From the NCBI GenBank assembly GCA_022710725.1, contig JAKLGK010000006.1, positions 257,605 to 321,604 of the forward strand: DNA of 64,000 nucleotides. The letters are read 5' to 3'. This DNA is from Verrucomicrobiota bacterium (GTDB lineage Bacteria; Verrucomicrobiota; Kiritimatiellia; CAIQIC01; JAGNIJ01). Below are positions 16,997 through 63,140 of this stretch, in pieces. The notes beneath the pieces are model-generated. The model did not search any database, was not told the DNA's origin, and saw only the letters and a list, made by a program, of their open reading frames with translations. The position numbers and the translations under genes were made by a program. Each line of letters starts with the position of its first letter. Position 1 is the first letter of the stretch.

Positions 16997-17073
16997 CAGT
17001 CCGGATAGGCAATTATGAGAACTGCGTCACAAGAATTTGCATTACAGCATATAGTGTCGATTTATATTAGCAT

Positions 17074-29078: not shown

Positions 29079-29158
29079 ACGGAAGGCGCGAAGGGCGCGA
29101 AGACGGAAGAGCAGGAGCAGGAGCAAGAAGCTGAATCCTGTACCCTAGAAATGCTTCG

Positions 29159-31088: not shown

Positions 31089-31714
31089 GCGGCATGGCGG
31101 GCAACCTTAAAAAGGTGCTGGTGGATCCGTTGTCGGAGAACAACCCGGTGACGATACAGATCCTCGGCATCTGCTCGTCGCTGGCCGTCACCGTCAAGCT
31201 GGAGACCGCGCTGGTCATGGCGATCGGGCTGACGGTGGTCACCGCCGGCTCGAACTGGGTCATCTCGCTGCTGCGCAACACGATCCCGAGCAAGATCCGG
31301 ATGATCGTGGAGATGGCCGTGGTGTCGGTGCTGGTGATCGTGGCGGACCAGTTCCTGCGGGCCTACCTGTTCGAGATCAGCCGGCAGTTGAGCGTGTTCG
31401 TGGGCCTGATCATCACCAACTGCATCGTCATGGGGCGGCTGGAGGCCTATGCTCTTCAGAATCCGCCGGGGTTGTCGTTCCTCGACGGGATCGGCAACGG
31501 ATTGGGCTACAGCCTCGTGCTGGTCATCGTCGCGTCGGTGCGCGAGATCCTCGGCTCGGGGAAGTGGCTCGGCTTCCGGGTCATCCCGGAGGCGGCCTAC
31601 AGCGCGGGGTACATCAACAACGGGTTCATGCTGCTGGCCCCGGGCGCGTTCATCGTGCTGGGGCTGCTGATCTGGGTGCAGCGGACGCTGTCGAAGAAGT
31701 TTGAAACGGACTAA
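31085..31714 (+). CDS. nqrD: Na+-NQR subunit D.
   Basis: NqrD/RnfE-like membrane protein ([21 protein letters not shown]). Confidence 0.88.
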
Positions 31715-31722
31715 GGGCGAAC

Positions 31723-32337
31723 ATGGAACTGATCAGCCTGGCGATACGGTCGATCTTCATCGAGAACATCCTGCTCTCGACGTTCCTCGGGATGTGCTCG
31801 TTCCTGGCCATCTCGAAGCGGATCGACACGGCCATGGGCCTGGGCGCGGCGGTGATCTTCGTCCAGTTCATCACCGTGCCGGCGAACTGGGCGATCAAGC
31901 ATTTCTTCCTGGAGCCCGGCGCCCTGGCCTGGACGGGGGTCCCGGCCCTGGCGGCGCTGGACCTATCGTTCCTGATTTTCATCTGCTTCATCGCCGTCAT
32001 CGCCTGCCTCGTGCAGTTCGTCGAGATGGTCCTGGACCGGTTCTTCCCGCCGCTCTACCAGTCGCTCGGCATCTTCCTGCCGCTGATCACGGTCAACTGC
32101 GCGATCCTCGGCGGCTCGCTGTTCATGGTCGAGCGCAACTACACCTTCGTGCAGTCCGTCGTGTACGGCTTCTCGTCCGGCGCCGGCTGGGCGCTGGCCA
32201 TCACCTGCATGGGCGCGATCCGCAAGAAGCTGCGCTACTCCAACATCCCGCCGGGCCTGAAGGGCCTCGGGATCACGATGCTGCTGACGGGCCTGATGGC
32301 GATGGCGTTCATGTGCTTCTCGGGGATCAGCCTGTAG
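31723..32337 (+). CDS. nqrE: Na+-NQR subunit E.
   Basis: NqrE/RnfA-like membrane protein ([19 protein letters not shown]). Confidence 0.88.
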
Positions 32338-32346
32338 GCGGAAAAC

Positions 32347-33573: not shown

Positions 33574-33576
33574 CGC

Positions 33577-34659
33577 ATGCTCGTCCAGCCCCGCAGAATG
33601 AATCCATGGAAGCTGCTCTGGGTCCTGGCGGTGATCTTGGCCTTCGCCGCCTTCACCTGGCGCCGCGATCCGCCGGGTCCGAAAAATCCCTCGTGGGCCG
33701 GAGAGACGATGGGCACCCTGTACTCGATCAAGCTGGCCGATTCGCCGTTGGGGCAGGGCGCGCTGCGCGAATTGCAGGCCGAGGTGGACCGCTGCCTGGT
33801 CGAGGTTAACCGCGAAATGTCCCACTACCAACCGGACAGCGAACTTTCGCAGTTCAATCGTCACGAATCCGCCGAGCCGTTCCCGGTGTCGCCCGGGTTC
33901 GCGAGCGTAGTCCGCTTTGCCCTCGAGTTAAACCGGCGGTCGGGCGGTGTTTTCGATCCCACGCTGGGCCCGCTCATCGACTTGTGGGGATTCGGCGCGC
34001 CGGGTCATGTGAGCGAGCCGCCTTCGCCGGCGCAGGTCGAGGAGGCGCGGGCGCGGATCGGCGGACAGCATCTCTCCGTCACTCCGGCGGGACAGCTGGT
34101 CAAGGGGATTCCCAGCCTTCGCCTGAACCTGGGCGCCGTGGCCAAGGGCTACGGGGTGGACGAAGTGGCGCGGGTGATCCGCGCGAACGGCATCAGCAAC
34201 CTGTTCGTCGAGATCGGCGGCGAAGTCGTCACCGCCGGCCACAATGCCGAGGGGCAAGCGTGGCGGATCGGCGTGGATGCGCCGCGCCCCGATGCGCTGC
34301 CCGGGCAGGAGTTGGAGACCATCCTTCACCTGTCCGGCCTCGCGGTCGCCACGTCCGGCGACTACCGGAACTACTTCGTGGACGGCGCAGGGATGCGGTT
34401 CACGCACATTCTCGATCCGCGCACCGGCCGGCCGATCCAGCATAACCTGGCCAGCGTCTCCGTGGTGGCGCCGGATTGCATGACGGCGGATGGCCTGGCC
34501 ACGACGCTGTTCGTCATGGGCGCCGAGGAGGGGATGAAGTGGATCGGGTCCTGGCCGGGCGTCGAGGCGCTTTTCATCCTGCGGGAGCCCGATGGCCGGT
34601 TCGTCTGCCGGCCGACCCCGGGCTTCGTGGCCTTGACCGGCTGTGCGCTCCCCGAGTGA
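33577..34659 (+). CDS. apbE: FAD:protein FMN transferase (flavin transferase for NqrB/NqrC).
   Basis: ApbE-family motifs (FDPTLGPLIDLWGFG, AKGYGVD, TSGDYRNYF). It is in the canonical position after nqrF. Confidence 0.85.
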   Translation: MLVQPRRMNPWKLLWVLAVILAFAAFTWRRDPPGPKNPSWAGETMGTLYSIKLADSPLGQGALRELQAEVDRCLVEVNREMSHYQPDSELSQFNRHESAEPFPVSPGFASVVRFALELNRRSGGVFDPTLGPLIDLWGFGAPGHVSEPPSPAQVEEARARIGGQHLSVTPAGQLVKGIPSLRLNLGAVAKGYGVDEVARVIRANGISNLFVEIGGEVVTAGHNAEGQAWRIGVDAPRPDALPGQELETILHLSGLAVATSGDYRNYFVDGAGMRFTHILDPRTGRPIQHNLASVSVVAPDCMTADGLATTLFVMGAEEGMKWIGSWPGVEALFILREPDGRFVCRPTPGFVALTGCALPE

Positions 34660-49915: not shown

Positions 49916-50566
49916 TCAGCGGAACCCGATGACCTTGAAGAACCCGCCTGCCGCGGACGGCGGCAGGTCGTTGCTGCAAACGCCCCCCGGCCCGGCGGCG
50001 GCCGCGCCGTTGGTCCTCCACGAGCCCGCCAGACTGTCGGCGGAAAGCACGCGGTAGCTGAAGCCGGTCGCGCCGGACATGACGACGCGCAGCGCGCCGT
50101 TCTCTGTCCATTCAATCCGCTCCACGGCCGCCGTGACCGGCGGGAGATGCCCCAGCAGGCGGGGGACGAAGGTCGGCTCGTATTGGATGCCCGTCGTGCG
50201 GTCGAGGTAGGCGAGGGGATTCCCGGGATCGATCACGCAGATCAGCGGGAGCGTGTAGGATCCCAGTCCTCCCGTGTAAGGATTTTCCTCCGTGGACGTG
50301 TCCACGGGGCAGAACCAGCAGACGTAGTCCGCATCGAGGATCGAGCGCACCGAGTTCGTCTCGCAGACCGTGTACTTCATGTAGTGGCAGTTCCCGCAGG
50401 ACTCCCGTCCCGCCAGCAGCAGGATGAGCCGTCCGGAATTCAGCGCCTGCTCGACCGCCGCGGCCCGGGAATCGCACCATTCAATGGAATCGCTTCGCGC
50501 GGGAGCGGCGAACCCGAGGGTTGCCGCCGCGAAGATAAGGAGGCCGGGCCTGTTGATGCGAGACAT
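49916..50566 (-). CDS. Secreted thioredoxin-like protein with a CxxC motif.
   Basis: Signal peptide and the sequence LLLAGRESCGNCHYMKY, which fits a thioredoxin-like fold. Confidence 0.45.
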   Translation of the reverse strand: MSRINRPGLLIFAAATLGFAAPARSDSIEWCDSRAAAVEQALNSGRLILLLAGRESCGNCHYMKYTVCETNSVRSILDADYVCWFCPVDTSTEENPYTGGLGSYTLPLICVIDPGNPLAYLDRTTGIQYEPTFVPRLLGHLPPVTAAVERIEWTENGALRVVMSGATGFSYRVLSADSLAGSWRTNGAAAAGPGGVCSNDLPPSAAGGFFKVIGFR

Positions 50567-50737
50567 GGTTTCCAGAGACCGTCGTATGATTACCCCAGAA
50601 AGCCGCGTCCGCAAATGGAAATGAAGAATGGATCGCCATGCGCCCGGCTTGGCCATTTCATCCAGGGACGGGGGGCCGTACAAGACGGATCAACAGGCAG
50701 GTTGATTTTCTGGTTGACCGCCAGAAGAATGCCGGGT

Positions 50738-50755
50738 ATTGTCTGATTGTGAAAT
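50738..50755. promoter_or_regulatory. Rex operator TTGTGAAATGATTCACAA, a perfect match to the Rex-box consensus TTGTGAAnnnnTTCACAA.
   Basis: Read from the sequence about 30 bp upstream of the rex start codon. It is an 18-bp inverted repeat. Confidence 0.6.
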
Positions 50756-50786
50756 GATTCACAATGTGAATCGGATAACGAAATAA

Positions 50787-51413
50787 ATGTTATCTTCTGA
50801 AAATACGGGAGTTCCGGCGAGGACCGTAGAAAGGCTTGTGCTTTATCGCCGGCTATTGAATGGCCTTACCGAGCAGGGCGTGGAGTTCATTCACTCCCAC
50901 GAAATCGCCGAGAAGGCCAATAATTCGGCCGCCCAGGTGCGGCGCGACCTGATGGCGATCGGCTACACCGGCAACCCGGCGCGCGGCTACGCGGTGAACG
51001 ACCTGGTCCGCAGCATCAACGGGCTTTTCGAGCAGAAACGCGACCAGAAGGCCGCGCTCGTCGGCATCGGCAAACTCGGGCGCGCGATCCTCGGGTACTT
51101 CGCGCTGCGCCAGGCCCGGCCGCGGATCGTCGCGGCCTTCGATAGCGACCCGGCCAAGGGACAGGGCGAGTTCGCCGGCTGCCCGTGCTATCCGGTGGAC
51201 GCGCTGACGTCCGTGATCGCCCGCGATGGCATCACGGTCGGCATCCTGACCGTCCCCGCGGATTTCGCCCAGCCGGTGACGGACCTGATGCTGGTCGCCG
51301 GCGTCCGGGGCATCCTGAATTTCGCGCCGACGCCGCTGAAGACGCCGGCATGGGCGGTGGTGGACAACGTGGACATTGCGACGAAGCTTGAGAAGGTGGC
51401 GTTTTTCTGTTGA
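50787..51413 (+). CDS. rex: Redox-sensing transcriptional repressor Rex.
   Basis: N-terminal winged-helix region (RLVLYRRLL...HEIAEKANNSAAQVRRDLMAIGYTG) and a Rossmann NADH-binding region (ALVGIGKLGRAI). Confidence 0.85.
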   Translation: MLSSENTGVPARTVERLVLYRRLLNGLTEQGVEFIHSHEIAEKANNSAAQVRRDLMAIGYTGNPARGYAVNDLVRSINGLFEQKRDQKAALVGIGKLGRAILGYFALRQARPRIVAAFDSDPAKGQGEFAGCPCYPVDALTSVIARDGITVGILTVPADFAQPVTDLMLVAGVRGILNFAPTPLKTPAWAVVDNVDIATKLEKVAFFC

Positions 51414-51425
51414 GGTACGGCCTCC

Positions 51426-53387
51426 ATGCTTAAGACCAAACTATTCCAGGCGTTCGCGGCGCTGGCGATCGTGTTCGGGCTGCTCTCCTCCGTCATCGGC
51501 ATCCAGATCATCCGCAAGCGGGTGATGGGCGAGGCGCAGAACCAGGTGAGCCTCGACATCGGCAGCGCATGGGCGATCTTCAATTCCAAGCTGCACGACC
51601 TGGAAACGGTCCTGGATCTCGTCGCCATCAAGAAGATCGTGGTGGACGCCGCATCCGAACACGACTGGGCGTCCGAGGACATCCAGCAGCGGCTCGAGAC
51701 CATCCGCACGAGCTTCGGCCTGGATTTCCTGACCGTGGTCTCGCCGGAAGGCCAGGTGGTGCTGCGCGCCGCGCCCCCGTACCGTACCGGCGACTTCCAG
51801 AAGCAGAACCCTGTGGTGCTGCGCGCGCTGAAGGGGGAGCACGCCTCCGGCGTGACGCTGATGTCGCAGCCCGAGCTGGACCTCGAGGCCGAGGGCCTGT
51901 CCGAGAAGGCGTTCCTGGTGCTGGAGAAGACCCCGCGCGCCCGGGCGACCCCGCTGACCGAGGAGAGTCGGGGCATGGTCCTCGCGACCGGCGTGCCGAT
52001 TTTCAAGGGCCCCCAGTTGCTGGGGGCGGTCTACGCCGGCGTTTTGCTCAACCGCAACCAGGACCTCGTGGACCGGATGACGGAGGTTATCTACAAGAAC
52101 GAGCAGTACAAGGGCCTCGCCATGGGCACGGCGACGATTTTCCTGAAGGACTGCCGCGTCGCCACCACCGTGCGTCTGCCCAACGGCAACCGGGCGATCG
52201 GCACGCGCGTCTCCAAGGAAGTCGCGGACCGCGTCCTGGACAACGGCCTGCCGTGGATCGGCCCCGCCTTCGTGGTCAAGGAGCCGTACCTCACTGCCTA
52301 CGATCCCATCCGCGGCTTCGACGGCGAGGTCATCGGCATGCTGTACGTCGGCCGGCTGGAGCGGCCGTTCAAGGCCCTGAGCCGGAATATCATGATGCGG
52401 TACGCCGGCCTGTCGGTTTTCGGCCTCGCGGCCGCGCTGGTCCTGGCCTTCATCATGGCCGGCCGGCTGGCGAATCCCATCCACCGGCTGGTGGAAGCCT
52501 CGCAGCGCATGCGGAAGGGCGAGCCGCACACCCCCGTCGAATGCCGGAGTTCCTGCGGCGAGATCGAGAACCTCGTCGTCGCCTTCAACGAGATGGCCAC
52601 GGCCCTCGAGGAGCGCGAGGGCCGCCTGAAGGAAGCCAACGAGAAGCTGGAGAAGACCAACGAGGCCGTCTCCGCCCTCAACTTGAGCTACATGGACATG
52701 CTGGGCTTCGTTTCGCACGAACTGAAGAGCCCGGTGGCCTCGATCATGAACTACGTCTTCCTGCTGCGGCAGCAGAAGCTCGGGCCGCTGACGCCGGGCC
52801 AGGAGAAGGCCGCGCGCAACATCGAGACCAACAGCAAGCGCATCGTGGAGATGGTCCGCCACTACCTGAACCTCTCCCGCATCGAGACCGGCGAGCTGCG
52901 GCCCGTGCCGACCCGCGTCGCGGTCGCCGACGAGGTCGTGCGCCCGCTGCTGGAGGCCTCGGAGGGCGACGCCCAGGCCCGCCGCATGCGCGTGGAGAGC
53001 CGCATCGGCGACGACCTGCGGCTGAAGACGGACCTGAACATGACCCGCGAGGTCTTCGAGAACCTGGTCAGCAACGCGATCAAGTACGGCCGCGACGACG
53101 GGCTGCTCCAGCTCGACGCGCAGCGCCGGGACGGCTTCGTCGAGTTCAGCGTGTTCAACGAGGGCGCCGGCATCCCGCGCGACAAGATCGAAACGGTCTT
53201 CCAGAAATTCACGCGCCTCGAGGAGGCCGACGGGACCCGCCACCAGAAGGGCACGGGCCTCGGGCTCTTCATCACGCGCCACATCGTCGAGGCCCACGGC
53301 GGCCGGATCCAGGTCGAATCCGAGCCGGGCCAGTGGGTCCGTTTCCGTTTCACGCTTCCGGTCTTCCCCGAACAGGAGAAAGCATAA
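51426..53387 (+). CDS. Sensor histidine kinase with a periplasmic Cache-type sensor domain (TM, Cache, TM, HAMP, HisKA, HATPase).
   Basis: Two TM helices flank a ~300-aa extracytoplasmic domain. H-box VSHELKSP is present, along with the ATPase G-boxes NAIKYG and GTGLGLFI. Confidence 0.85.
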   Translation: MLKTKLFQAFAALAIVFGLLSSVIGIQIIRKRVMGEAQNQVSLDIGSAWAIFNSKLHDLETVLDLVAIKKIVVDAASEHDWASEDIQQRLETIRTSFGLDFLTVVSPEGQVVLRAAPPYRTGDFQKQNPVVLRALKGEHASGVTLMSQPELDLEAEGLSEKAFLVLEKTPRARATPLTEESRGMVLATGVPIFKGPQLLGAVYAGVLLNRNQDLVDRMTEVIYKNEQYKGLAMGTATIFLKDCRVATTVRLPNGNRAIGTRVSKEVADRVLDNGLPWIGPAFVVKEPYLTAYDPIRGFDGEVIGMLYVGRLERPFKALSRNIMMRYAGLSVFGLAAALVLAFIMAGRLANPIHRLVEASQRMRKGEPHTPVECRSSCGEIENLVVAFNEMATALEEREGRLKEANEKLEKTNEAVSALNLSYMDMLGFVSHELKSPVASIMNYVFLLRQQKLGPLTPGQEKAARNIETNSKRIVEMVRHYLNLSRIETGELRPVPTRVAVADEVVRPLLEASEGDAQARRMRVESRIGDDLRLKTDLNMTREVFENLVSNAIKYGRDDGLLQLDAQRRDGFVEFSVFNEGAGIPRDKIETVFQKFTRLEEADGTRHQKGTGLGLFITRHIVEAHGGRIQVESEPGQWVRFRFTLPVFPEQEKA

Positions 53388-53390
53388 ACC

Positions 53391-55550
53391 ATGGCCACGC
53401 CGAAGGATAAAGTGCTGCAGATGCGCCGAGGGGCCGTCATGCGGCTATTCGAATCCAAGTTCCAGAATCCCACCCGCATCACCGTGGGCTCCGCGACGTG
53501 CGAAAACGCCGCGGGCGCCGGGGCCGTCTACGACGCGTTTGCCGAGCTGTTGTCAAAGCCCGGCGCGCCGAAGGTGGCCCTCGGGCGCGTCGGCTGCACC
53601 GGCCGCTGCGACCTCGAGCCCGTCGTCTCCGTGATCGCGCAGGGGCACATCCCCGTGAAGTACGTCAAGGTCACGCCCGCCCGCGCGGAGAAGATCGTCG
53701 AGCAGCACATCCGCGGCGGGAAGATCGTGGACGAGTTCACGATGCGGCACGTGGCGAATCTCCCGATGACCGGCAAGGTCGTTGGCGTGTGCGGCGGGAT
53801 GCATTGCCGCCAGGGGCAGGGCATCCGGGAGGCCTTCCTCCGGGGCGTGGAGGAGCAGGGCCTGAAGGAGCAGGTGGCGGTCACGACCTCCGCGTGCTTC
53901 GGCCTTTGCGAACGCGGGCCCAACGCCTTCGTCTATCCCGACGGCGTGCTCTACCAGAAGCTCACGCCCGAGAAGGTGGCGAAGATCGTCGAGAAGCACC
54001 TGAAGGGCGACCGGCCGGTGGCCGAGTGCGCGTGGGGCGGCAAGCGGATCGCGAACCGGTTCCTCCCGCTCTACGGCGACGAGGCCTTTTTCGGCAAGCA
54101 GCTGCGCCTGACGCTTCGCAACTGCGGCGTGATCGATCCCGAGAGCCTCGACGAATACGTCGCCGTCGAGGGCTACGACGCGCTGGCAAGAGTGCTGACC
54201 GAGATGTCGCCGAAGCAGGTGGTGGACGCCGTGGTCAAGTCCGGCCTGCGCGGGCGCGGCGGCGGCGGATTCCCGACGGGGACCAAGTGGCAGTTCGCGG
54301 CGTCGCAGAAGGCCGACCAGAAGTACATGGTCTGCAACGCCGACGAGGGCGACCCCGGCGCGTTCATGGACCGCAGCACGATCGAGGGCGACCCGCACAC
54401 GATCCTCGAGGGCCTGATGATCGGCGGCTATGCCATCGGCGCGAACCAGGGCTACGTCTACATCCGCGCGGAGTACCCGCTGGCCATCAAGCGGCTCGAG
54501 CGCGCCATCGCGGACGCCCGCGCGGCGGGCCTGCTGGGCAGAAACATCCTGGGCTCGAAGTTCGATTTCGACATCGAGCTGCGGCTCGGCGCCGGCGCGT
54601 TCGTCTGCGGCGAGGAGACGGCGCTGCTGAAGTCCATCGAGGGCTCGCGCGGCATGCCGCGGCCCCGGCCGCCGTTCCCGACCACGGCCGGCCTCTGGGG
54701 CAAGCCGACGGTGATCAACAACGTCGAGACACTGGCCAACGTGCCGGTCGTGATCATCGACGGGCCGGAGTGGTTCGCGTCGCTGGGCACGGCGAAGAGC
54801 AAGGGGACCAAGGTCTTCTCCCTCGCCGGCAAGGTCAACAACACGGGCCTGGTCGAGGTGCCGATGGGCACGACGCTGCGCGAGGTCGTCTACGACGTCG
54901 GCGGCGGCATCAAGGGCGGCAAGGCGTTCAAGGCCGTGCAGACCGGCGGCCCCGCGGGCGGCTGCATGCCGGCGGCGGCGCTGGACACGCCCGTGGATTA
55001 CGACTCGCTCGCCGCGGCGGGCAGTATCATGGGCTCGGGCGGGATGATCGTGATGGACGAGGACACCTGCATGGTGGACGTCGCGCGGTTCTTCCTCGAG
55101 TTCACGCAGGACGAGTCCTGCGGCAAGTGCACGCCCTGCCGCGAGGGCACCAAGCGCATGCTGGAGATGCTCGAGCGGATCACGAAGGGGCAGGGGCAGG
55201 AGGGCGACGTCGAGAAGCTCTTGCGCCTGGCCGACACGGTGAAGAAGGCGTCGCTGTGCGGCCTGGGCCAGGCGGCGCCCAACCCGGTGATCAGCACGAT
55301 CAAGCATTTCCGCGACGAGTACGACGCGCACATCCGCGAAAAGAAATGCCCGGCCGGCGTATGCGCCTCGCTGGTGACCTACTCGGTCATCCCGGAGAAC
55401 TGCACCGGCTGCACGGCCTGCGCGCGGAAGTGCCCGGTGAAGTGCATCGACGGCGCGCCGAAGAAGGCGCACGTGATCGACCAGGAGCAGTGCATCCGGT
55501 GCGGCCAGTGCCTCGCCGCGTGCAAGTTCGACGCCATCTTGAGGAAATGA
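53391..55550 (+). CDS. hydB: NuoF-like flavoprotein subunit of a multimeric (bifurcating-type) [FeFe] hydrogenase (HydB).
   Basis: N-terminal thioredoxin-like 2Fe-2S region (CTGRCDLEP), the NuoF core GRGGGGFPTGTKW, and C-terminal 2x[4Fe-4S] (CTGCTACARKCPVKC, CIRCGQC). Confidence 0.85.
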   Translation: MATPKDKVLQMRRGAVMRLFESKFQNPTRITVGSATCENAAGAGAVYDAFAELLSKPGAPKVALGRVGCTGRCDLEPVVSVIAQGHIPVKYVKVTPARAEKIVEQHIRGGKIVDEFTMRHVANLPMTGKVVGVCGGMHCRQGQGIREAFLRGVEEQGLKEQVAVTTSACFGLCERGPNAFVYPDGVLYQKLTPEKVAKIVEKHLKGDRPVAECAWGGKRIANRFLPLYGDEAFFGKQLRLTLRNCGVIDPESLDEYVAVEGYDALARVLTEMSPKQVVDAVVKSGLRGRGGGGFPTGTKWQFAASQKADQKYMVCNADEGDPGAFMDRSTIEGDPHTILEGLMIGGYAIGANQGYVYIRAEYPLAIKRLERAIADARAAGLLGRNILGSKFDFDIELRLGAGAFVCGEETALLKSIEGSRGMPRPRPPFPTTAGLWGKPTVINNVETLANVPVVIIDGPEWFASLGTAKSKGTKVFSLAGKVNNTGLVEVPMGTTLREVVYDVGGGIKGGKAFKAVQTGGPAGGCMPAAALDTPVDYDSLAAAGSIMGSGGMIVMDEDTCMVDVARFFLEFTQDESCGKCTPCREGTKRMLEMLERITKGQGQEGDVEKLLRLADTVKKASLCGLGQAAPNPVISTIKHFRDEYDAHIREKKCPAGVCASLVTYSVIPENCTGCTACARKCPVKCIDGAPKKAHVIDQEQCIRCGQCLAACKFDAILRK

Positions 55551-55552
55551 CC

Positions 55553-57319
55553 ATGTCCACCACCGAGAACGAAGTCACCCTGTCGATCGACGGCATCGTC
55601 ACCAAGGCGCCGGCCGGGTCCACGATCATGGATGCCGCCGACTCCGTCGGGATCAAGATCCCGCGGCTCTGCTACCACCCGCACTTGAGCATCCTCGGCG
55701 CGTGCCGCGTGTGCCTGGTCGAGGTCGAGGGCCAGCGCAACCCGGTCGCGTCCTGCGCCTATCCCGTCGCGGACGGCATGAAGGTCCGGACCTCCTCCAA
55801 CCAGCTCCGGCGCCTGCGCCGCGACGTGGTGGAGCTGATCCTCGACAGCCACCCGAAGGACTGCCAGACCTGCGAGCGCAACGGGAACTGCGAGCTCCAG
55901 AAGCTGTCCTACGACCTGGGCATCCGCGAGCGGTTGTTCGAGGGCGAGCGCAAGCAGCCGCCGAAGGACCTGTCTTCGCCGGCCGTCATCCGCGACCCGG
56001 AGAAGTGCATCCTGTGCGGGCGGTGTGTCCGCGTATGCAACGAGGTGCAGGGTGTTTACAACTTGAGCCAGCACCAGCGCGGCTTCCAGATCTGCGTCGC
56101 GCCAGCCCACGAGGGCGACATGCTGAACTCGGTGTGCGTGCAGTGCGGCCAGTGCGCGAACGTCTGCCCGACGGCGGCGATCATCGAGCACAGCGCCACC
56201 GACGAGGTGTTCAAGGCGCTGGAGGATCCAGCCAAGCACGTCGTGGTCCAGACCGCGCCGTCCATCCGCGCGGCGATCGGCGAGGGGTTCGGCTTCGAGC
56301 CCGGCACGCCGGCGACGGGCAAGATGATCAGCGCGCTGCGCACGCTCGGTTTCGACCGGGTGTTCGACACGAACTTCGGCGCCGACCTGACGATCGTCGA
56401 GGAGGCGCACGAGTTCATCCGGCGCCTGAAGAACAACGACCGACTGCCGCTGATCACGTCCTGCTCGCCGGGCTGGATCAAGTTCATGGAGCATTTTTAT
56501 CCCGAGCTGATCCCGCACGCGTCGACGTGCCGCTCGCCGATGACGATGCTCTCCGTGCTGCTGAAGACGTACTACGCGGAGAAGCAGGGGCTCGACCCGA
56601 AGAACATCTACGTGGTCGGCGTCATGCCCTGCACGGCGAAGAAGTACGAGGCGCGCCGGCCCGAGCACGCGGACGCGAACGGGGTGCCGTACACCGACGC
56701 CGTGCTCACGACGCGCGAGCTGATCTGGATGATGAAGACCTTCGGGATCGAGTTCAAGCACCTGCACGACGGCGACTTCGACAACCCGCTGGGCTTCTCC
56801 TCCGGCGCGGCGGACATCTTCGGCACGACGGGCGGCGTGATGGAGGCCGCGCTGCGTACGGCGTACGAGACCGTCACCGGCCAGCCGTGCGAGAACCTGG
56901 ACTTCGTCGAGGTGCGCGGCGTCGAGGGCGTGAAGGAGTCGAAGGTGAAGATCGGCGACCAGACGCTGAACGTGGCCGTGTCCAACGGCCTGCAGAACGC
57001 CAAGCGGCTGTTCGACCGCGTGCTGAAGGGGGACAAGAAGTACCACATGATCGAGGTCATGGCGTGCCCCGGCGGGTGCATCGGGGGCGGCGGCCAGCCG
57101 TACCCGCCGCCGGGCCTGCACATCATGGACGCCAAGCTCCTGCGCATGCGGGCCAAGGCGCTGTACGCGATCGACCACCACAAGCAGATTCGGAAGTCGC
57201 ACGAGAACCCGTACATCCAGCAGCTCTACAAGCACTACCTCGGCGAGCCGAATAGTCCCAAGGCCCATGAACTGCTGCACACGCATTACGAAGCCAAACT
57301 GCCCCGGGGGACCCGATGA
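55553..57319 (+). CDS. hydA: [FeFe] hydrogenase catalytic subunit (group A3-like, N-terminal 2Fe-2S and FeS clusters plus H-cluster).
   Basis: H-cluster motifs TSCSPGW (L1), MPCTAKKYE (L2) and EVMACPGGCIGGGGQP (L3), plus an N-terminal 2Fe-2S ferredoxin region. Confidence 0.9.
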   Translation: MSTTENEVTLSIDGIVTKAPAGSTIMDAADSVGIKIPRLCYHPHLSILGACRVCLVEVEGQRNPVASCAYPVADGMKVRTSSNQLRRLRRDVVELILDSHPKDCQTCERNGNCELQKLSYDLGIRERLFEGERKQPPKDLSSPAVIRDPEKCILCGRCVRVCNEVQGVYNLSQHQRGFQICVAPAHEGDMLNSVCVQCGQCANVCPTAAIIEHSATDEVFKALEDPAKHVVVQTAPSIRAAIGEGFGFEPGTPATGKMISALRTLGFDRVFDTNFGADLTIVEEAHEFIRRLKNNDRLPLITSCSPGWIKFMEHFYPELIPHASTCRSPMTMLSVLLKTYYAEKQGLDPKNIYVVGVMPCTAKKYEARRPEHADANGVPYTDAVLTTRELIWMMKTFGIEFKHLHDGDFDNPLGFSSGAADIFGTTGGVMEAALRTAYETVTGQPCENLDFVEVRGVEGVKESKVKIGDQTLNVAVSNGLQNAKRLFDRVLKGDKKYHMIEVMACPGGCIGGGGQPYPPPGLHIMDAKLLRMRAKALYAIDHHKQIRKSHENPYIQQLYKHYLGEPNSPKAHELLHTHYEAKLPRGTR

Positions 57320-57834
57320 CAGCCCAGGAAGAAAAAGTCACCACGCTGGCCGAACTGCCCGAGCCCATCGCGCGGTTCATCGACGAGACGCGCGACCGGC
57401 CGAACGCGGACAGCTACCTCGTGGCCGTGCTGCAGATGATCCAGAAACATTTCGGCTACCTGCCCGCCGGCGCGCTGAACACCGTGTCGCAGAAGATGCA
57501 GATCCCGGCCGCGAAGGTGACCGGGGTGGCGACGTTCTACCACTTCTTCACCTTCGTCCCCAAGGGCAAGCACACCGTGTCCGTGTGCATGGGCACGGCC
57601 TGCTACGTCAAGGGTGCGGGGATCCTGGTGGACCGCCTGAAGGACCTGCTCGGCATCCGGCAGATCGGCCACGCGTCGAAGGACGGCCAGTTCACGCTGG
57701 AGGTCGCCCGCTGTGTGGGCGCCTGCGCCCTGGCGCCGGTGCTGATCGTGGACGACAAGGTCTACGCCAACGTCCGGCCGGACGAACTGCCGAAAATCCT
57801 GTCGAAATATGGTTTCAAACCGAAAGCGGAATAG
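57316..57834 (+). CDS. hydC: NuoE-like 2Fe-2S thioredoxin-like subunit of the hydrogenase (HydC).
   Basis: CMGTACYVKG...CVGACALAP 2Fe-2S motif. It overlaps the hydA stop. Confidence 0.8.
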   Translation: MTAQEEKVTTLAELPEPIARFIDETRDRPNADSYLVAVLQMIQKHFGYLPAGALNTVSQKMQIPAAKVTGVATFYHFFTFVPKGKHTVSVCMGTACYVKGAGILVDRLKDLLGIRQIGHASKDGQFTLEVARCVGACALAPVLIVDDKVYANVRPDELPKILSKYGFKPKAE

Positions 57835-57875
57835 TTATATGTAACAGGCAGGGCGCGTTGGCGCAACGCGCCGTG

Positions 57876-58307
57876 ATGCGAATGAGCGACGGCAAGACCA
57901 TCCTGATCGTGGACGACGATCCCGACTTCGTGGAATCCAACCGGGACCTCCTCGAGGCCTACGGCTACTCCGTCCACGCCGCGCACAACGGCGCCGACGG
58001 CCTGGACCTGGCGCGGAAGGTCAGGCCGGACGTGCTGATCCTCGACGTGATGATGGCGACCAACACCGAGGGTTTCGAGGTGGCGCGCAAGATCCCCGAG
58101 ACGCCCGAGTTGAAGGGGCTCCGCGTGCTGCTGGTCACGGGCGTCACGAAGGACATGCACCTGCCTTTCGGCTTCGAGCCGGACGCGAGTTGGCTTCCGG
58201 TGGACCGCGTGCTTGAAAAACCCATAGCCCCCAACCGGCTCCTGACCGAGATCCAGAAGGTGCTGGGCGAGGCGAACCCCAAAGGAGAGAACTCCCATGC
58301 CGGCTAG
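57876..58307 (+). CDS. Single-domain response regulator (receiver only), copy 1 of a tandem pair.
   Basis: Receiver-domain residues ILIVDDD, LILDVMM (phospho-Asp), LLVTG and EKP (Lys). No output domain is present. Confidence 0.75.
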   Translation: MRMSDGKTILIVDDDPDFVESNRDLLEAYGYSVHAAHNGADGLDLARKVRPDVLILDVMMATNTEGFEVARKIPETPELKGLRVLLVTGVTKDMHLPFGFEPDASWLPVDRVLEKPIAPNRLLTEIQKVLGEANPKGENSHAG

Positions 58308-58689
58308 CAAGAAAACCATCCTGATCGTGGATGACGATCGCGATTTCGTGGAATCGAACAAGGACCTGCTCGAGGCCAACGGGTACCGCGTGATTTCCGC
58401 CCACGACGGCGCGAGCGGCCTGGCGCTGGCCAAGAAGGAGCGGCCGGCCCTGATGATTCTCGACGTCATGATGGCGACGAACACGGAGGGGTTCGAGGTC
58501 AGCCGGAGAATCCCCGAGTCGCCCGAGCTCAAGAACATGCCGGTCCTCATGGTCACGGGCATCCGCAAGGAGATGCACCTGCCCTTCGCCTTCGAGCCGG
58601 ACGAGACCTGGCTGCCGGTATCCAGCCTGTTCGAAAAGCCCATCGAGCCCGCCACGCTGCTGGCCGAGATCAAGAAGCGGATCGGGTGA
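58297..58689 (+). CDS. Single-domain response regulator (receiver only), copy 2 of a tandem pair.
   Basis: About 60% identical to copy 1 over its full length (TILIVDDDRDFVESNKDLLEANGY...MILDVMMATNTEGFEV...). It overlaps copy 1 by 11 nt. Confidence 0.8.
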   Translation: MPASKKTILIVDDDRDFVESNKDLLEANGYRVISAHDGASGLALAKKERPALMILDVMMATNTEGFEVSRRIPESPELKNMPVLMVTGIRKEMHLPFAFEPDETWLPVSSLFEKPIEPATLLAEIKKRIG

Positions 58690-58716
58690 CGCGGGCGGAG
58701 CCGCGCCCGCTCCGAA

Positions 58717-59286
58717 CTACTGCTTCGCGAGAAGGGCCGCGTAAGCGCAGCCTACGCGGGGCGTTGTGCGGAGGATGAACCCCGTTTCCTTCGCGATCCT
58801 CACTTCCGCCTCGAAAGCCGGCCCGTCCACGTGCCCCTTGGGCTCGGCGATGAGCAACGTGCCGCCCGGCTTGAGCGCCCGGTGAAAAGCGGCCAGCAGG
58901 CGTTGGACATCCGGCACCTCGTGGATGACCGCGAAGGCCAGGATGAAATCCATGGCGCCTTCGAATTCCTGCAACCCGAAGTCCTCGTGCCCGCAACGCC
59001 GGATGAAGATCCGGCCCGAAAGCCCGCGCCGGGCCGCGCGCCGTTTCAGCTGGTCCAGCATGCCGTCCTGGACATCCACAGCGTACACCCGGCCGGTCGG
59101 CCCGACGAGTTCGGCCAGCGGCAGCGTGAAGAACCCCATGGCGCAGCCGAAATCCAGCGCGCGCATGCCGGGCCGGACGCAGGGCGCGAGGATCTTCCGG
59201 GGATCCTGGAGCAACCTGCGGAGCGGGTTCAGCAGGAGCCAGCCGATCCAAACGGGACAGGCATGGTGTTTATGCGGGGCTGTCAT
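58717..59286 (-). CDS. Class I SAM-dependent methyltransferase.
   Basis: Motif I ALDFGCAMGFF and the post-I acidic residue VYAVDV. About 190 aa. Confidence 0.68.
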   Translation of the reverse strand: MTAPHKHHACPVWIGWLLLNPLRRLLQDPRKILAPCVRPGMRALDFGCAMGFFTLPLAELVGPTGRVYAVDVQDGMLDQLKRRAARRGLSGRIFIRRCGHEDFGLQEFEGAMDFILAFAVIHEVPDVQRLLAAFHRALKPGGTLLIAEPKGHVDGPAFEAEVRIAKETGFILRTTPRVGCAYAALLAKQ

Positions 59287-59292
59287 GATGTA

Positions 59293-60282
59293 TTACTCCG
59301 CCGGTTGAAGCCGCAGGGAATCCCCCCGCTCCAGGCTGGCCGTGCGGCCGGCCAGTCGGATGGCGCGCCGCGCGGATTCCAGGTCCGCGCAAACGCGCTT
59401 GTCGTACAGGCGGTAGCTGGCGCGGTACGAATCAGGAGTCCCGTTGACCATGATCACGTTGCAACCGAAACGCAAGCCGGCGGCGAAGCCCTCGGACGGA
59501 TCGAGCGTGGCCAGCGCGGTCGTGGCGGGCAGGTGCGTGCCGGGCGACGCGATGCGGGCCAGCGCCAGCAGGCGGAGCACGGTCTCCCGCTCGCCAGCCT
59601 GCTGGTCGGCGAACGGAGTGTCCGCCTGCGGAAGGAACGGGCCGATCCCGGCCATGTCGGGCTGGAAATCCTGCAGGAAGAGTATTTCGCCCGCCAGGTC
59701 CTCCGCGGTCTGACCCGGCAGGCCGACGAGAAAACCGACGCCTACCTGGTAGCCCAGTTCGCGCAGCCGTTCGATGATGCTCATCCGCACGGCGTGGGAC
59801 TGGCCGGGATGAATGCGGTCGTACAGCGTGGCGTTGACGGTCTCGTGCTTCAGCAGGTAGCGATCCGCGCCCGCCTCGCGAAAGGCCTCGTAGTCCTCCA
59901 GGGGCCGCTCGCCGATGGACAGCGTGATGGCCGCGCCGGGCGCGTCGGTCTTGATGTCCCGGATGATGTCGCACAGCATGGCCGTGGTGTAGTGCGCGTC
60001 GTCACCGGATTGCAGGATGACGGTGCGGAGGCCCCAGCGCAGGAGGGTGGACGCGGCCTGCCGGATTTCCGCGGGGCTCATGCGGTAGCGCTTGAGGCGG
60101 CGATTCTCGCGGCGCAGCCCGCAGTACCGGCAACTCCGCGCGCAGCAATTGGAGAACTCCACGATGCCGCGCAGGAACACCCCCTCGCCGCAATGCTCCC
60201 GCCGCGCCGCGTCCGCCCGGCCCCTCAACGCATGCGAGTCCGGGGCCCGGAGCTCATCAAGAATATCGTTCTTCGACAGCAT
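59293..60282 (-). CDS. hydE: [FeFe] hydrogenase maturase HydE (radical SAM). The longer ORF could start at 60339 instead.
   Basis: Radical-SAM motif FSNCCARSCRYCG (CxxxCxxC) and a BioB/HydE-like layout. It lies next to hydG and hydF. Confidence 0.72.
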   Translation of the reverse strand: MLSKNDILDELRAPDSHALRGRADAARREHCGEGVFLRGIVEFSNCCARSCRYCGLRRENRRLKRYRMSPAEIRQAASTLLRWGLRTVILQSGDDAHYTTAMLCDIIRDIKTDAPGAAITLSIGERPLEDYEAFREAGADRYLLKHETVNATLYDRIHPGQSHAVRMSIIERLRELGYQVGVGFLVGLPGQTAEDLAGEILFLQDFQPDMAGIGPFLPQADTPFADQQAGERETVLRLLALARIASPGTHLPATTALATLDPSEGFAAGLRFGCNVIMVNGTPDSYRASYRLYDKRVCADLESARRAIRLAGRTASLERGDSLRLQPAE

Positions 60283-60366
60283 CGGAATCCTCAACTGCGA
60301 AACACGCGAAATACGCGAAAGAAAAGATGAGGAACTCAATTTTCGCGCGTTTCGTAGTTCCTTCTT

Positions 60367-61863
60367 CTACAGGAACAAATCCCGCTCCCCCCGCGCCGTC
60401 CGTTCGTAGAACTGCATGAACACCGGATAGCCCTTCGGGTTCTGCTCCCGTATCTCGGCCAGTTCGTGCTGCAGCACTTTTTCGCCCGCCGCCTGCGTGG
60501 CCGGGCTGGCGAAGTCGTCCAGCCACTCGCGGAACGTCAGGACCGCGTTCAGCTTGCAGAACTTCCCTTCGCGCCCGCTGCGGAGCAGGTCCATGATGCA
60601 CTGGCCCGTCCGCCCGCACCGGTAGCCGGCCGTGCAGAACGAAGTAATATAGCCCATCTCCGCGAGTTCGCGCACCACGTCGTCGAGACTGCGGGTGTCG
60701 CCCAGCAGAAACTGTTGGCGCGAGCCCTGTTGCGACTCGTAGGCTTCGCTGTACGCGCCGACCCCGATGCGCGACGACGCGTCGGTCTGCGTGCAGCCGA
60801 GCGGGATCAGCCGCCGCCGCATCCCGGCGTTTTCCCGCGCGGTCAGGATCATGCCGGTGTACGGCACGGAGAGCCGGAGGACGACCACCGCGCGCTCCAT
60901 GTCCTCGTCGCTTACGAGGAACCCGGACTCCTGCGTGAAGGGCGTGCTCTCCGCGGGCTCGAGGCGGGGGAAGGAGATCGTGTGCGGGCCGATTCCGAAC
61001 GCGCGCTCCAACTCCCGCGCGTGATAAAGAAGCCCCATGACCTCGAAGCGCCAGTCGGCCAGGCCGAACAACGCGCCGAGACCGACGTCGTCGATCCCGG
61101 CCTCCATCGCCCGGTGCATGGCGTACAACCGCCAGGCGTAGTCGCCCTTGATCGTGCCGGCGGGATGCAGCCGGGCATACGTGTCGTGGTGGTAGGTCTC
61201 CTGGAAAACCTGGTACGTGCCGAGCCCGACCTCGTGCAGAATCTTCAGTTCCTCCACCCGCAGGGGCGGCGCGTTGACGTTGATGCGCCGGATCTGCCCG
61301 AAGCCGATCCGCGCCTTGACCCTGGCGCTGTAAATCGTGCGCAGCGATTCCGCCATGTAGTCAATCGCGGAATCCGGATGCTCCCCGTAAACGACAATTA
61401 ACCTCTTGTGACCGATTTGCCCGGCCAGCACCTCGGCCTCGCGCCGGATCTCGTCCTGCGTCAGCACGCGTCGCTCGATCGCCGCGTTGGCGCAGCGCAG
61501 CCCGCAGTAGAGGCAGTTGTTGACGCACCGGTTGCTTAAATAGAGAGGGGCGAACGTGACGATGCGGTTGTCGTAGACCTTCCGCTTGATCCGCGCGGCG
61601 GCCGTCTTCATCTCCGTCCACAGGTCGGGATCGGTGACGTGCAGCAGGGCGGCGGTCTCGTCCGGTTCCAGGGTCTGGATGGCCTCGGATTTCGCGATGA
61701 TGGCGCGGATGCGAGCGGGATCAGGCTCCCGGTTCGCGCGCAGCCGCGCTTCGATCTCGGCGTCGGGGATGAAATCGCCGTCGTCGGTCCGGTACTTGTC
61801 GATCTGGTCCCGCGCAATGCGGTTGCGGATCCAGGAGGAGCGTTCGGTGAGTTGTGTGGTCAT
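60367..61863 (-). CDS. hydG: [FeFe] hydrogenase maturase HydG (radical SAM tyrosine lyase, ThiH-like). An alternative start at 61899 is possible.
   Basis: Radical-SAM motif SNRCVNNCLYCG. A length of ~500 aa and a C-terminal Cys-containing region are consistent with HydG. Confidence 0.78.
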   Translation of the reverse strand: MTTQLTERSSWIRNRIARDQIDKYRTDDGDFIPDAEIEARLRANREPDPARIRAIIAKSEAIQTLEPDETAALLHVTDPDLWTEMKTAAARIKRKVYDNRIVTFAPLYLSNRCVNNCLYCGLRCANAAIERRVLTQDEIRREAEVLAGQIGHKRLIVVYGEHPDSAIDYMAESLRTIYSARVKARIGFGQIRRINVNAPPLRVEELKILHEVGLGTYQVFQETYHHDTYARLHPAGTIKGDYAWRLYAMHRAMEAGIDDVGLGALFGLADWRFEVMGLLYHARELERAFGIGPHTISFPRLEPAESTPFTQESGFLVSDEDMERAVVVLRLSVPYTGMILTARENAGMRRRLIPLGCTQTDASSRIGVGAYSEAYESQQGSRQQFLLGDTRSLDDVVRELAEMGYITSFCTAGYRCGRTGQCIMDLLRSGREGKFCKLNAVLTFREWLDDFASPATQAAGEKVLQHELAEIREQNPKGYPVFMQFYERTARGERDLFL

Positions 61864-61877
61864 GAGAGGGTCGGGGT

Positions 61878-63140
61878 TCAGGACGGGGCTCCTGCCCACG
61901 CCGTCTTGCTTTGCGCCTTCTGTTCAATTCCGAATGGTTCCAGCACCCGGGGCAGCACGCCTTGCAGGTGCGAGATGCACAGGCCGTAGTTCGTGATCGG
62001 CACGCCCGCCGCGGCGGCCTTCTCGATCCGGGCCAGCACCTCGCGCTGGGTCAGCATGCACGCGCCGCACAGGATGATGAGCGAGTACGACGCCACGTCG
62101 TCCGGCCAGTCGCGGCCCGAGCAGACCGTAACCTCCACGTCGAACCCGAGATGCTTCTTCAGCCAGCGCGGGATCTTTACGCGGCCGATGTCGTCCTCCA
62201 CGGCGTGGTGCGTACAGGCCTCGGCGATCAGCACGCGGTCGCCGGGCCGCAGCCGGTCGATGGCCGACACGCCCTCGGTCTGCCGCGCGAGGTCGCCGCG
62301 GAACCGGGAGAAGAGGATCGAAAACGTCGTGCACTTCACGCCGGGCGGCGTCTCCGCGACCATCCGGTGGACGACCTGGGAGTCGCACACCACAAGATCC
62401 GGCGGGCGAGCCAGTTGCGAAAGCAGGGCGGTGTACTCGGTTTCCCGGCAGACGGCGACCATTTCGCCGTGGTCCAGCGCGTCGCGGATCGCCTGGACCT
62501 GCGGGAGAATGATCCGCCCTTTCGGCGCCTCCTTGTCGATCGGGATGATCAGCACGATCAGCCCGCCGGGCGGGACCAGGTCGCCGAGCAGGCTGGGCGC
62601 CGCGACGACATGGTCGGGGCAGATTTCCAGCAGGTGCTCCTTGAACTGGTGAACCACGCGATCGCGCTCCGCGCCCGTGAACGGGTGACTGGCACACTGG
62701 AGCAGGCGCGGGATTTTCGCGCGGACCGCTTCGATAAAAGCGGCCGTCGGTTGTTCCAGGTCCGCTTTATTGATGACCGCGATGACCGGCGTCTTGCGTT
62801 TGGTGAATTCGCCGAGCAGTTCGTCCTCGAACGCCGTCCAGCGGTTCGGCTCCAGCAGCAGGACCGCGACATCGCTGCGATCCAGCGCGCGGCGGGTGCG
62901 GTCGACCCGGCCGGCCCCGAGCTCGGACGTGTCGTCGAGACCGCCGGTGTCCAGGAACGCAACCGGGCCGACGGGCAGCAGTTCCATGGCCTTCTCCACG
63001 ACGTCCGTGGTCGTGCCGGGTATGGGCGAAGTCAGGGCGACGTCCTGGCCTGCGACGAGGTTCAGGAAGCTGGACTTCCCGACGTTCGTCCGGCCGAAGA
63101 GGCCGATGTGCAGCCGCAGGGATTTGGGTGTTTTTTCCAT
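61878..63140 (-). CDS. hydF: [FeFe] hydrogenase maturation GTPase HydF.
   Basis: N-terminal GTPase motifs GRTNVGKSS (G1), DTGG (G3) and NKAD (G4). A C-terminal cluster-binding region with CxH...C is present. Confidence 0.8.
   Translation of the reverse strand: MEKTPKSLRLHIGLFGRTNVGKSSFLNLVAGQDVALTSPIPGTTTDVVEKAMELLPVGPVAFLDTGGLDDTSELGAGRVDRTRRALDRSDVAVLLLEPNRWTAFEDELLGEFTKRKTPVIAVINKADLEQPTAAFIEAVRAKIPRLLQCASHPFTGAERDRVVHQFKEHLLEICPDHVVAAPSLLGDLVPPGGLIVLIIPIDKEAPKGRIILPQVQAIRDALDHGEMVAVCRETEYTALLSQLARPPDLVVCDSQVVHRMVAETPPGVKCTTFSILFSRFRGDLARQTEGVSAIDRLRPGDRVLIAEACTHHAVEDDIGRVKIPRWLKKHLGFDVEVTVCSGRDWPDDVASYSLIILCGACMLTQREVLARIEKAAAAGVPITNYGLCISHLQGVLPRVLEPFGIEQKAQSKTAWAGAPS

Follow-up and report, generated by a model that had tools for sequence, protein, structure and literature searches.

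What does a sensor kinase with two lone receivers do inside the operon of a hydrogenase? This question is raised by a locus in a 64,000-nt stretch of DNA from a member of the Kiritimatiellia (hereafter the window, to which all coordinates refer), in which rex, a sensor histidine kinase gene (HK), hydB, hydA, hydC and two response regulator genes (RR1 and RR2) follow one another. This content and order had been proposed in a first-pass annotation of the same DNA, and both were upheld by the sequence and by Pfam; the list of open reading frames (ORFs) and Pfam placed all seven genes at the coordinates first assigned, on the plus strand only, and the operator in front of them was likewise where it had been placed. 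The answer that we favour, and to which we give about an even chance, is that a Rex-repressed [FeFe] hydrogenase of the HydABC type has a dedicated two-component module that would probably sense formate and would deliver its output by protein-protein contact. Such an answer would have the seven genes transcribed together, formate bound by the kinase, phosphate passed on to the receivers, and a response, in whichever direction, exerted on a protein that these touch.

The control by Rex was considered first. The rex gene (50787..51413, plus strand) encodes a redox-sensing repressor of 208 amino acids (aa) with the Pfam domains Put_DNA-bind_N and CoA_binding, which scored 193.6 bits against NCBIfam NF003995 (cutoff 126) and displays a GIGKLG glycine motif in its translation. 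The operator (50747..50764) is a perfect palindrome, TTGTGAAATGATTCACAA, with the arms TTGTGAA and TTCACAA around ATGA, and it matches the consensus TTGTGAANNNNTTCACAA as quoted in PMC6391272 (after Ravcheev et al. 2012) and PMC2883068. Both elements of a Rex regulon were therefore found, namely a consensus operator in the promoter region and a protein that combines a winged-helix N-terminus with an NAD(H)-binding Rossmann domain. The earlier claim of a perfect Rex box preceding rex stands, as TTGTGAAATGATTCACAA occurred once in the window and in none of 100 shuffles. The last base of the box is 23 nt upstream of the rex start codon, and this placement is as would be expected of a repressor blocking initiation. 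Upstream of it, a promoter-like site (50714..50742, plus strand) is composed of TTGACC, a 17-nt spacer and TATTGT. This was the single sigma-70-like match within 50000-59500, which is at chance level (shuffle mean of 0.9), and its position is suggestive because the Rex box begins 5 nt past the -10 hexamer. A further TGTGAA half-site lies at 50765-50770 and forms a second inverted repeat (TTCACA-A-TGTGAA, 50758-50770), giving three consecutive half-sites; this repeat could be the site for a second dimer, or mere chance. A search for additional Rex boxes, for instance upstream of nqr, had been proposed; within the window, a search with a free centre and up to three mismatches gave just two more matches, both with three mismatches, at 17015 and at 53725 (within hydB). 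A complete nqrABCDEF-apbE operon for a Na+-translocating NADH:quinone oxidoreductase is located at 27708-34659, and no Rex-like box was detected before nqrA at this threshold.

All seven genes probably form a single transcription unit, as judged from their spacing. Gaps read off the sequence were 12 nt between rex and HK and 3 nt between HK and hydB, four-nucleotide ATGA overlaps join hydB to hydA and hydA to hydC, and RR1 and RR2 overlap by 11 nt. The spacing of 3-13 nt plus overlaps that had been reported is thus right for all junctions but one, the gap between hydC and RR1 being 41-47 nt depending on which RR1 start (57873, 57876 or 57882) is used. No terminator-like site was found in any intergenic gap of the cluster (four matches in the scan against 5.3 expected). 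A hairpin at 57851-57871, between hydC and RR1, was discarded as a feature, as it folded no better than shuffled sequences (z of -0.45). Past the last gene, a GC-rich hairpin with the arms GCGGGCG and CGCCCGC around GAGCCG (58691..58710) was read off the sequence with no tool score; it lies between RR2 and a convergent methyltransferase gene and is probably the end of the transcription unit.

In the enzyme encoded by this unit, HydA (55547..57319, plus strand; 590 aa) is a catalytic [FeFe]-hydrogenase subunit with the Pfam domains Fe_hyd_lg_C and SSU. It aligned with HydA1 of T. kivui (E of 7e-180) and of A. woodii (2e-177), and reached 854 bits (cutoff 765) against NCBIfam NF040763, 'NADH-dependent [FeFe] hydrogenase, group A6'. 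All three H-cluster motifs are present, these being L1 TSCSPGW, L2 MPCTAKKYE and L3 EVMACPGGCIGGGGQP. The L1 motif (~56430-56450) deviates from TSCCPxW at the second Cys, which is a [4Fe-4S] ligand in CpI and is a Ser here. As the L1 of A. woodii HydA1 (7q4v) is identical, TSCSPGW is a variant that occurs naturally in this group of enzymes. HydC (57316..57834, plus strand; 172 aa) is a NuoE-like [2Fe-2S] subunit (Pfam 2Fe-2S_thioredx, E of 3.8e-45). HydB (53391..55550, plus strand; 719 aa) is of the NuoF type, with 2Fe-2S, FMN/NADH and 4Fe-4S domains and a C-terminal 2x[4Fe-4S] domain according to Pfam, and from residue 132 to 717 it could be aligned with A. woodii HydB (7q4v_B, E of 2.7e-246) from one end to the other. 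With L1-L3 in HydA, a NuoF-like HydB carrying an N-terminal [2Fe-2S] and a C-terminal 2x[4Fe-4S] domain, and a NuoE-like HydC, hydBAC is predicted to encode an NADH- and ferredoxin-linked (bifurcating or confurcating) [FeFe] hydrogenase of the Acetobacterium/Thermoanaerobacter type; the name of family NF040763 says just 'NADH-dependent' and nothing on bifurcation.

The same enzyme had been called trimeric. The three genes are indeed there, but residues 1-131 of HydB (53391-53783) form an extra thioredoxin-like domain with three Cys only, which resembles HydD/HndB of tetrameric enzymes. The 'trimeric' enzyme is therefore a fusion of the tetrameric layout. In four related loci (L009, L029, L033 and L064) this domain is a separate ORF of ~123 aa. 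In the NCBI annotation hydB begins 136 codons too late, which misses the domain and creates a false gap of 412 nt; the long form is backed by the JGI gene call and by tblastn matches in other genomes.

The kinase gene (51426..53387, plus strand) encodes 653 aa arranged as a first transmembrane segment (TM1), a bimodular dCache sensor domain (Pfam sCache_3_3/dCache_3), a second transmembrane segment (TM2), HAMP, HisKA and HATPase_c. Hydrophobic segments at residues ~5-31 and 322-352, together with these domains, agree with the periplasm-facing Cache-HAMP kinase described beforehand. Among the 833 relatives that a protein search returned at E ≤1e-20, the best 120 were full-length and at least 52% identical. 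The H-box (GFVSHELKSP) aligns with those of WalK and HK853 and contains His431 (codon at 52716..52718, plus strand), the phospho-acceptor. The presence of this histidine had been left to closer alignment, and it proved invariant in 119 of 119 homologues. Also invariant in the homologues were the N box (ENLxSNAxKY), the F box (FxKF) and the G2 box (GTGLGL). The G1 box departs from the usual DxGxG: its Asp is Asn578, in a motif N-E/D-G-x-G (N-E-G-A-G here; residues 578-582, 53157-53171) shared by all 119 homologues, and the placement was checked by alignment to WalK and HK853. Asn578 may reflect an atypical use of nucleotide or an altered balance between kinase and phosphatase activities. No NCBIfam family cutoff was passed by the kinase.

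What this kinase might sense was approached by sequence comparison and by structure prediction, the latter proposed in the first-pass annotation for finding the ligand class; both pointed to a formate-binding type that had not been foreseen. An AlphaFold2 model of residues 28-335 (predicted local distance difference test score, pLDDT, of 92; predicted template modelling score of 0.86) showed a long helix and two alpha/beta modules. Taken as a whole, the domain resembled bimodular dCache sensors in Foldseek (HK1s-Z16, PctA, DctB and LuxQ; 10-15% identity, ~8 Å). The second module (residues 227-311; 52104..52358, plus strand) leads into TM2, so it is membrane-proximal in the model, and its pocket is lined by T237, F239, R244, T247, T260, Y292 and Y307. 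Local superposition of this module on 8py0, the best local match in Foldseek, gave a root-mean-square deviation of 1.9 Å over 111 columns with 28% identity, and on 8py1 one of 1.9-2.0 Å, the identities to 8PY0/8PY1 being 24-28%. In agreement with this, the formate-bound structures 8PY0/8PY1 were the only significant matches when the sensor region was compared with the PDB by phmmer, one more match being weak (E of 0.2). Pfam reported sCache_3_3 (E of 3.6e-30) over profile positions 3-105 of 107 and Cache_3-Cache_2 over positions 92-195 of 299, and a full sCache_3_3 with a partial Cache_3-Cache_2 match is the pattern of formate sensors (PMC11804620). According to the same study, formate is marked by a central Arg (PacF R142, R6 R111), Thr (PacF T145 and T158, R6 T100), Tyr (R6 Y160) and a pair of Phe residues, R6 F175 being the one that shuts the very small pocket, and formate binding has been confirmed for another sCache_3_3 receptor with these residues (PMC12415202). 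In our family R244, T247, T260, T237, Y292 and F239 were kept in 118-119 of 119 homologues, and the position of R6 F175 corresponds to Y307, which was Tyr in 118 homologues and Phe in one. The Pfam signature, the pocket residues and the fold superposition are therefore those of a formate Cache, and formate, as the ligand suggested by an sCache_3_3/PacF-type pocket, is more probable than any other candidate, with a chance somewhat better than even.

Three features weigh against formate, and from them comes a rather unlikely alternative, in which the pocket binds another small ligand, such as nitrite, bicarbonate/CO2 or acetate, or the distal module is the real sensor. Firstly, in a formate sensor this module would be expected in the membrane-distal position or as the sole module; it is distal in PacF, and most dCache domains bind their ligand distally (PMC11804620), so the membrane-proximal place that it takes here is unusual. 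However, Tlp1 of C. jejuni binds formate at its proximal module (PMC11804620), and the position is for that reason not disqualifying. Secondly, the distal module is likewise highly conserved, with many invariant polar residues, and might itself be the actual sensor or an additional one. Thirdly, one pocket residue is altered, the floor being Tyr instead of Phe, and the identity to 8PY0 is merely 28% over 111 columns. Nevertheless, all formate-contacting residues of 8PY0/8PY1 and PacF are retained, and Tyr for Phe does not enlarge the pocket, while the authors of PMC11804620 ascribe formate specificity to size exclusion. The gene neighbourhood also favours formate, FdhA-like genes being present in six related loci and an FHL-like cluster coming after the two receivers in L074. 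A redox, haem or metal sensor was discarded, as there is no CXXCH and the lone periplasmic Cys243 is variable.

The two receivers lie directly downstream of hydC: RR1 (57882..58307, plus strand; 141 aa, with alternative starts at 57873 and 57876) and RR2 (58297..58689, plus strand; 130 aa) share 68% identity. Pfam found Response_reg and nothing else in either, which bears out the report of two single-domain receivers with no DNA-binding output. In both, the acceptor pocket is canonical, D12, D13, D56, T87 and K114 being invariant in 32 database sequences and conserved in an alignment of 87 sequences from the related loci. The family has motifs of its own, a TEGFE past the acceptor Asp and an invariant LPFxFEPDxxWLPV in the position of helix alpha4. 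In the AlphaFold2 model of RR2, residues 91-98 (alpha4) were the sole poorly predicted part (pLDDT <50) in spite of an invariant sequence, and this segment would suit a surface that becomes ordered upon contact with a partner. Neither receiver passed an NCBIfam cutoff, the best family being the DVU0259/DivK-type NF045717, with 55.1 and 68.6 bits against 160. All 120 closest homologues were stand-alone proteins of 127-152 aa, and no fused output domain was found among them. Fusions were met only by reading the loci, in two Phycisphaerae (L049, 12081-12947; L050, 12060-12911), where a receiver joined to a pair of CBS domains lies beside HK and a [NiFe] hydrogenase; L049 has an additional, separate CBS protein upstream.

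The breadth of this association was then examined. A scan with one genome per species gave 69 loci, of which 66 contained true orthologues of the kinase (48-70% identity); neighbourhoods were examined over ±10 kb around each kinase and mapping counts refer to 65 loci. Greedy ORF calling lost the small receiver genes to antisense shadow ORFs, so the synteny counts rest on tblastn and divergent receivers may be missed. The 66 genomes belong to about eight phylum-level lineages, including Kiritimatiellia/Verrucomicrobiota, Lentisphaerae/Victivallales, Planctomycetota (Brocadiia and Phycisphaerae), Fibrobacterota/Chitinivibrionales, Deltaproteobacteria/Syntrophaceae, Spirochaetales and Ca. Vecturithrix. 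Hydrogenase-related genes were present in 56 of the 65 loci, and in 36 of the 39 with long flanks. These genes were of several types, namely [FeFe] hydBAC or hydCBA, [NiFe] group-3-like, hydEFG, and genes like those of formate dehydrogenase or formate hydrogenlyase (FHL), and usually one to three receivers of the dedicated stand-alone family accompanied the kinase. Look-ups starting from receiver homologues independently gave the same cassette.

The commonest arrangement was that of the window, HK-hydB-hydA-hydC-RR(-RR), in ~22 loci. Five loci had HK-hydB-hydC-RR-RR and no hydA, and three had hydB-X-hydC variants. In ~8 loci a conventional hydC-hydB-hydA was followed by RR-HK(-RR), and HydB was there fused to a GltD-like NAD(P)H module. 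Two such fusions with a GltD/NfnB-like NAD(P)H-FAD module, of 1048-1061 aa (L072, 4615-7761; L018, 15512-18697), suggest an NADP-linked hydrogenase. The small and large subunits of a [NiFe] hydrogenase stood beside HK-RR in 10 loci, and hydE, hydF or hydG beside the kinase in 13. Linkage across [FeFe], [NiFe] and maturation loci ties the kinase to hydrogen metabolism as such and not to a particular enzyme. Its steadiest neighbours were NuoF/NuoE-like, HydB occurring in 43 loci and HydC in 36. These counts qualify two claims of the first-pass annotation. The arrangement is unusual relative to model organisms, but it is a conserved cassette in many phyla; and the B-A-C order, which does differ from the common one and is the hallmark of the cassette in ~22 loci, is not a constant of it, since the same kinase and receivers also accompany C-B-A, [NiFe] and hydEFG genes.

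Several observations on single loci may be added. In L074 an FHL-like cluster (10427-18414) lies close downstream of HK-hydBAC-RR-RR, past an intervening rubrerythrin gene; it encodes a molybdopterin enzyme, Fer4_22 and HycI together with an antiporter-like subunit and the large subunit of a group-4 [NiFe] enzyme. The spirochaetal locus L037 (Spirochaetales; 6045-10343) consists of two divergent rex genes, HK and two receivers, with an RR-HisKA_2 hybrid kinase just upstream. A gene for a TonB-dependent outer-membrane receptor comes directly after the receivers in L016, L022, L023, L027, L035, L046 and L051, and after the kinase in L060; these are mostly Victivallales/Lentisphaerae.

From these data the following working scheme can be proposed. 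At a low cytoplasmic NADH/NAD+ ratio Rex would sit on an operator overlapping the transcription start, as its position suggests, and would keep the whole unit off, rex included; a rise in NADH would allow expression. External formate, to judge from the sequence and the model, would act as a second input through the proximal Cache module. The signal would travel via HAMP to the kinase core, and phosphate would pass from His431 to Asp56 of both stand-alone receivers. Once phosphorylated, these would dock on another protein, most likely the NADH-dehydrogenase-like module formed by HydB/HydC and their relatives. Docking is proposed because the receivers have no DNA-binding domain and an invariant, family-specific surface replaces alpha4, and the NuoF/NuoE-like module is favoured as the target because no other neighbour is as common, irrespective of which catalytic subunit is present.

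Four observations speak against this scheme as a whole. All the related loci come from metagenome-assembled genomes. About one fifth of those with good flanks have the kinase and no receiver nearby. The G1 Asp, an adenine contact in other kinases, is replaced by Asn throughout the 119 homologues, and therefore the chemistry of HK may be atypical. Finally, L037 has Rex, HK and two receivers with no hydrogenase within 10 kb, which would suit a regulatory target, for instance Rex, no less than an enzymatic one.

Two other destinations of the phosphate were weighed. The receivers might be intermediates or branches of a phosphorelay ending at a DNA-binding regulator or another effector elsewhere in the genome, hydrogenase transcription being then controlled indirectly. 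Stand-alone receivers of the Spo0F kind do operate in this way, two to three paralogous receivers per locus would suit a relay or a phosphate sink, and a distant partner would escape a view of just ±10 kb. However, ORF clustering and tblastn mapping, which did not include a domain scan of every ORF, revealed no recurrent family of Hpt proteins or DNA-binding response regulators, nor any other recurrent regulator apart from Rex, in the 65 loci, and a distant target would not require receivers and enzyme genes to be so strictly co-localised across phyla. We regard a relay as unlikely. The earlier suggestion that the output does not run through a linked DNA-binding response regulator fits these data, as none of the 65 loci showed one by tblastn or ORF clustering and the 120 closest receiver homologues stand alone.

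Rex itself is the main alternative target of the receivers. Phosphorylated receivers might bind Rex and alter its DNA binding, by which external formate and internal NADH would be integrated at one operator. Rex was the sole recurring DNA-binding protein, Rex-like genes being present in 18 of the 65 loci and directly upstream of the kinase in 12. Across the 1.1 Mb of related loci there were five operators with at most one mismatch, where shuffles gave 0.1, and all five lay upstream of rex, HK or hydC. The entire module of the window is itself behind a Rex box, and L037, with its two rex genes, has already been mentioned. Against this, 47 of the 65 loci have no Rex within reach, and we know of no precedent for a complex between a receiver and Rex. 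Moreover, Rex regulates hydrogenase operons that lack any two-component system (PMC6391272), so the adjacency may just reflect a shared regulon. Altogether Rex appears a quite improbable target, and docking on the NuoF/NuoE-like module is still the reading that we prefer. Lastly, that kinase and receivers are in the operon by chance or as hitch-hikers and regulate something unrelated to hydrogen metabolism is very improbable. No hydrogenase gene was seen in the stretches fetched for nine of the 65 loci, several of them short contigs, but the linkage is kept in the other 56, across about eight phylum-level lineages and differing hydrogenase classes.

The surroundings of the unit complete the picture of the locus. 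Downstream of RR2 and on the minus strand are a SAM-dependent methyltransferase gene (58717-59286; Pfam/NCBIfam), hydE (59293-60339; 334 bits), hydG (60367-61899; 452 bits) and hydF (61878-63140; 507 bits), the last three above their NCBIfam cutoffs, and then a TM1266-like gene next after hydF. With hydBAC on one strand and hydE, hydG and hydF converging on it, the locus is a complete [FeFe]-hydrogenase island. The small methyltransferase gene wedged between RR2 and hydE is not at that position in L001 and L003, where RR2 directly precedes hydE. In L001, L017, L019, L021, L026, L039 and L058 an aspartate ammonia-lyase/fumarase-like gene lies beside hydF or hydE, which suggests an accessory role in H-cluster maturation.

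To our knowledge, little is known about the control of NADH-linked, bifurcating-type hydrogenases in fermenting and syntrophic anaerobes beyond Rex and the as yet uncharacterised sensory hydrogenases. The cassette is a concrete candidate for a second input, a membrane kinase with a pocket like that of experimentally defined formate sensors, and it accompanies hydrogenases of two catalytic classes that are unrelated, in uncultured anaerobes of many phyla from digesters, sediments and guts. In anoxic habitats formate is to H2 a soluble equivalent, interconverted with H2 and CO2 by the communities, and a simple pocket in a protein is enough to bind it, which is not so for H2; production of H2 by confurcation requires that H2 and formate stay low. 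A quite improbable extension is that extracellular formate serves the cell as a soluble stand-in for the partial pressure of H2, and that the receivers dock on the HydB/HydC-like module common to [FeFe] and [NiFe] hydrogenases and formate dehydrogenases, switching confurcation post-translationally. If the general scheme were true, interspecies exchange of formate and H2 would be linked to enzyme control, the formate-sensing Cache family would reach from chemotaxis into energy metabolism, and a family of receiver-only regulators would have a function. If this extension in particular were true, this would be the first two-component system known to control a hydrogenase enzyme and not its gene, and a way of 'sensing hydrogen' free of any hydrogenase. 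For annotation, HK, the B-A-C order and receivers of the WLPV type provide a marker of hydrogenase regulation in metagenomes.

Among the known systems, the H2-sensing two-component systems HoxBC-HoxJ-HoxA and HupUV-HupT-HupR and the putative sensory [FeFe] hydrogenases (HydS) are also dedicated signalling modules beside hydrogenase structural genes. In those, H2 is sensed in the cytoplasm by a hydrogenase-like protein and the pathway ends in an NtrC-type regulator or in Ser/Thr kinase-phosphatase pairs, whereas the present module has no sensory hydrogenase, PAS domain or NtrC-type regulator. The formate regulon of E. coli, in which FhlA and HycA control hyc, hyp and fdhF, shares with it the use of formate, predicted here, as the signal for a hydrogenase system. 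However, FhlA works in the cytoplasm as a sigma-54 activator to which formate binds directly, and its target is a [NiFe] group-4 FHL, while here the sensor would be extracytoplasmic and part of a two-component kinase with no DNA-binding output. With the docking receivers CheY, DivK and the DVU0259 family, RR1 and RR2 have in common the single receiver domain and the canonical acidic pocket with its Thr and Lys; DivK was their best match in the PDB and DVU0259_DivK their best in NCBIfam, but they differ in scores far below the cutoffs and in the replacement of alpha4 by the invariant LPFxFEPDxxWLPV. The structurally characterised HydABC enzymes of A. woodii (7q4v), T. kivui (8a6t) and T. maritima (7p5h) align with HydA, HydB and HydC over their full length (E of 1e-177 to 1e-246) and share all cofactor-binding domains and, in A. 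woodii HydA1, the L1 motif. What sets the present enzyme apart is its B-A-C gene order, the extra N-terminal domain of HydB and an operon shared with rex, HK and two receivers.

The formate chemoreceptors PacF, Atu0526 and sCache_3_3 of 8PY0/8PY1 (PMC11804620; PMC12415202) have the same Pfam signature, the same pocket of Arg, two or three Thr, Tyr and Phe, and a fold superposable at 1.9 Å; the present sensor differs in feeding a histidine kinase rather than a chemoreceptor, in the Tyr of its pocket floor and in forming the proximal part of a two-module domain, the distal module of which is of another type. Neither of these two papers mentions a link to hydrogenases. The Rex-regulated hydrogenase operons of Firmicutes and Thermotogae, such as those of Caldicellulosiruptor (PMC6391272), share the consensus TTGTGAANNNNTTCACAA, a rex under its own control, and targets that include genes for [FeFe] hydrogenases and their maturases; in the window the host is a metagenome-assembled genome of the Kiritimatiellia, in the PVC group, the hydrogenase unit itself begins with rex, and a transmembrane kinase and two receivers are within that unit. 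A search of full-text literature found no description of a hydrogenase-linked Cache kinase or receiver module, which is weak evidence because subscription journals are mostly outside its coverage. Each part is thus of a known kind: a Rex regulon (PMC6391272, PMC2883068), a HydABC enzyme, a formate-type Cache module (PMC11804620) and CheY/DivK-like receivers. What is new, and apparently undescribed, is the combination of these parts, its breadth over phyla and hydrogenase classes, a formate-type pocket at the proximal position of a kinase, and a receiver family dedicated to it.

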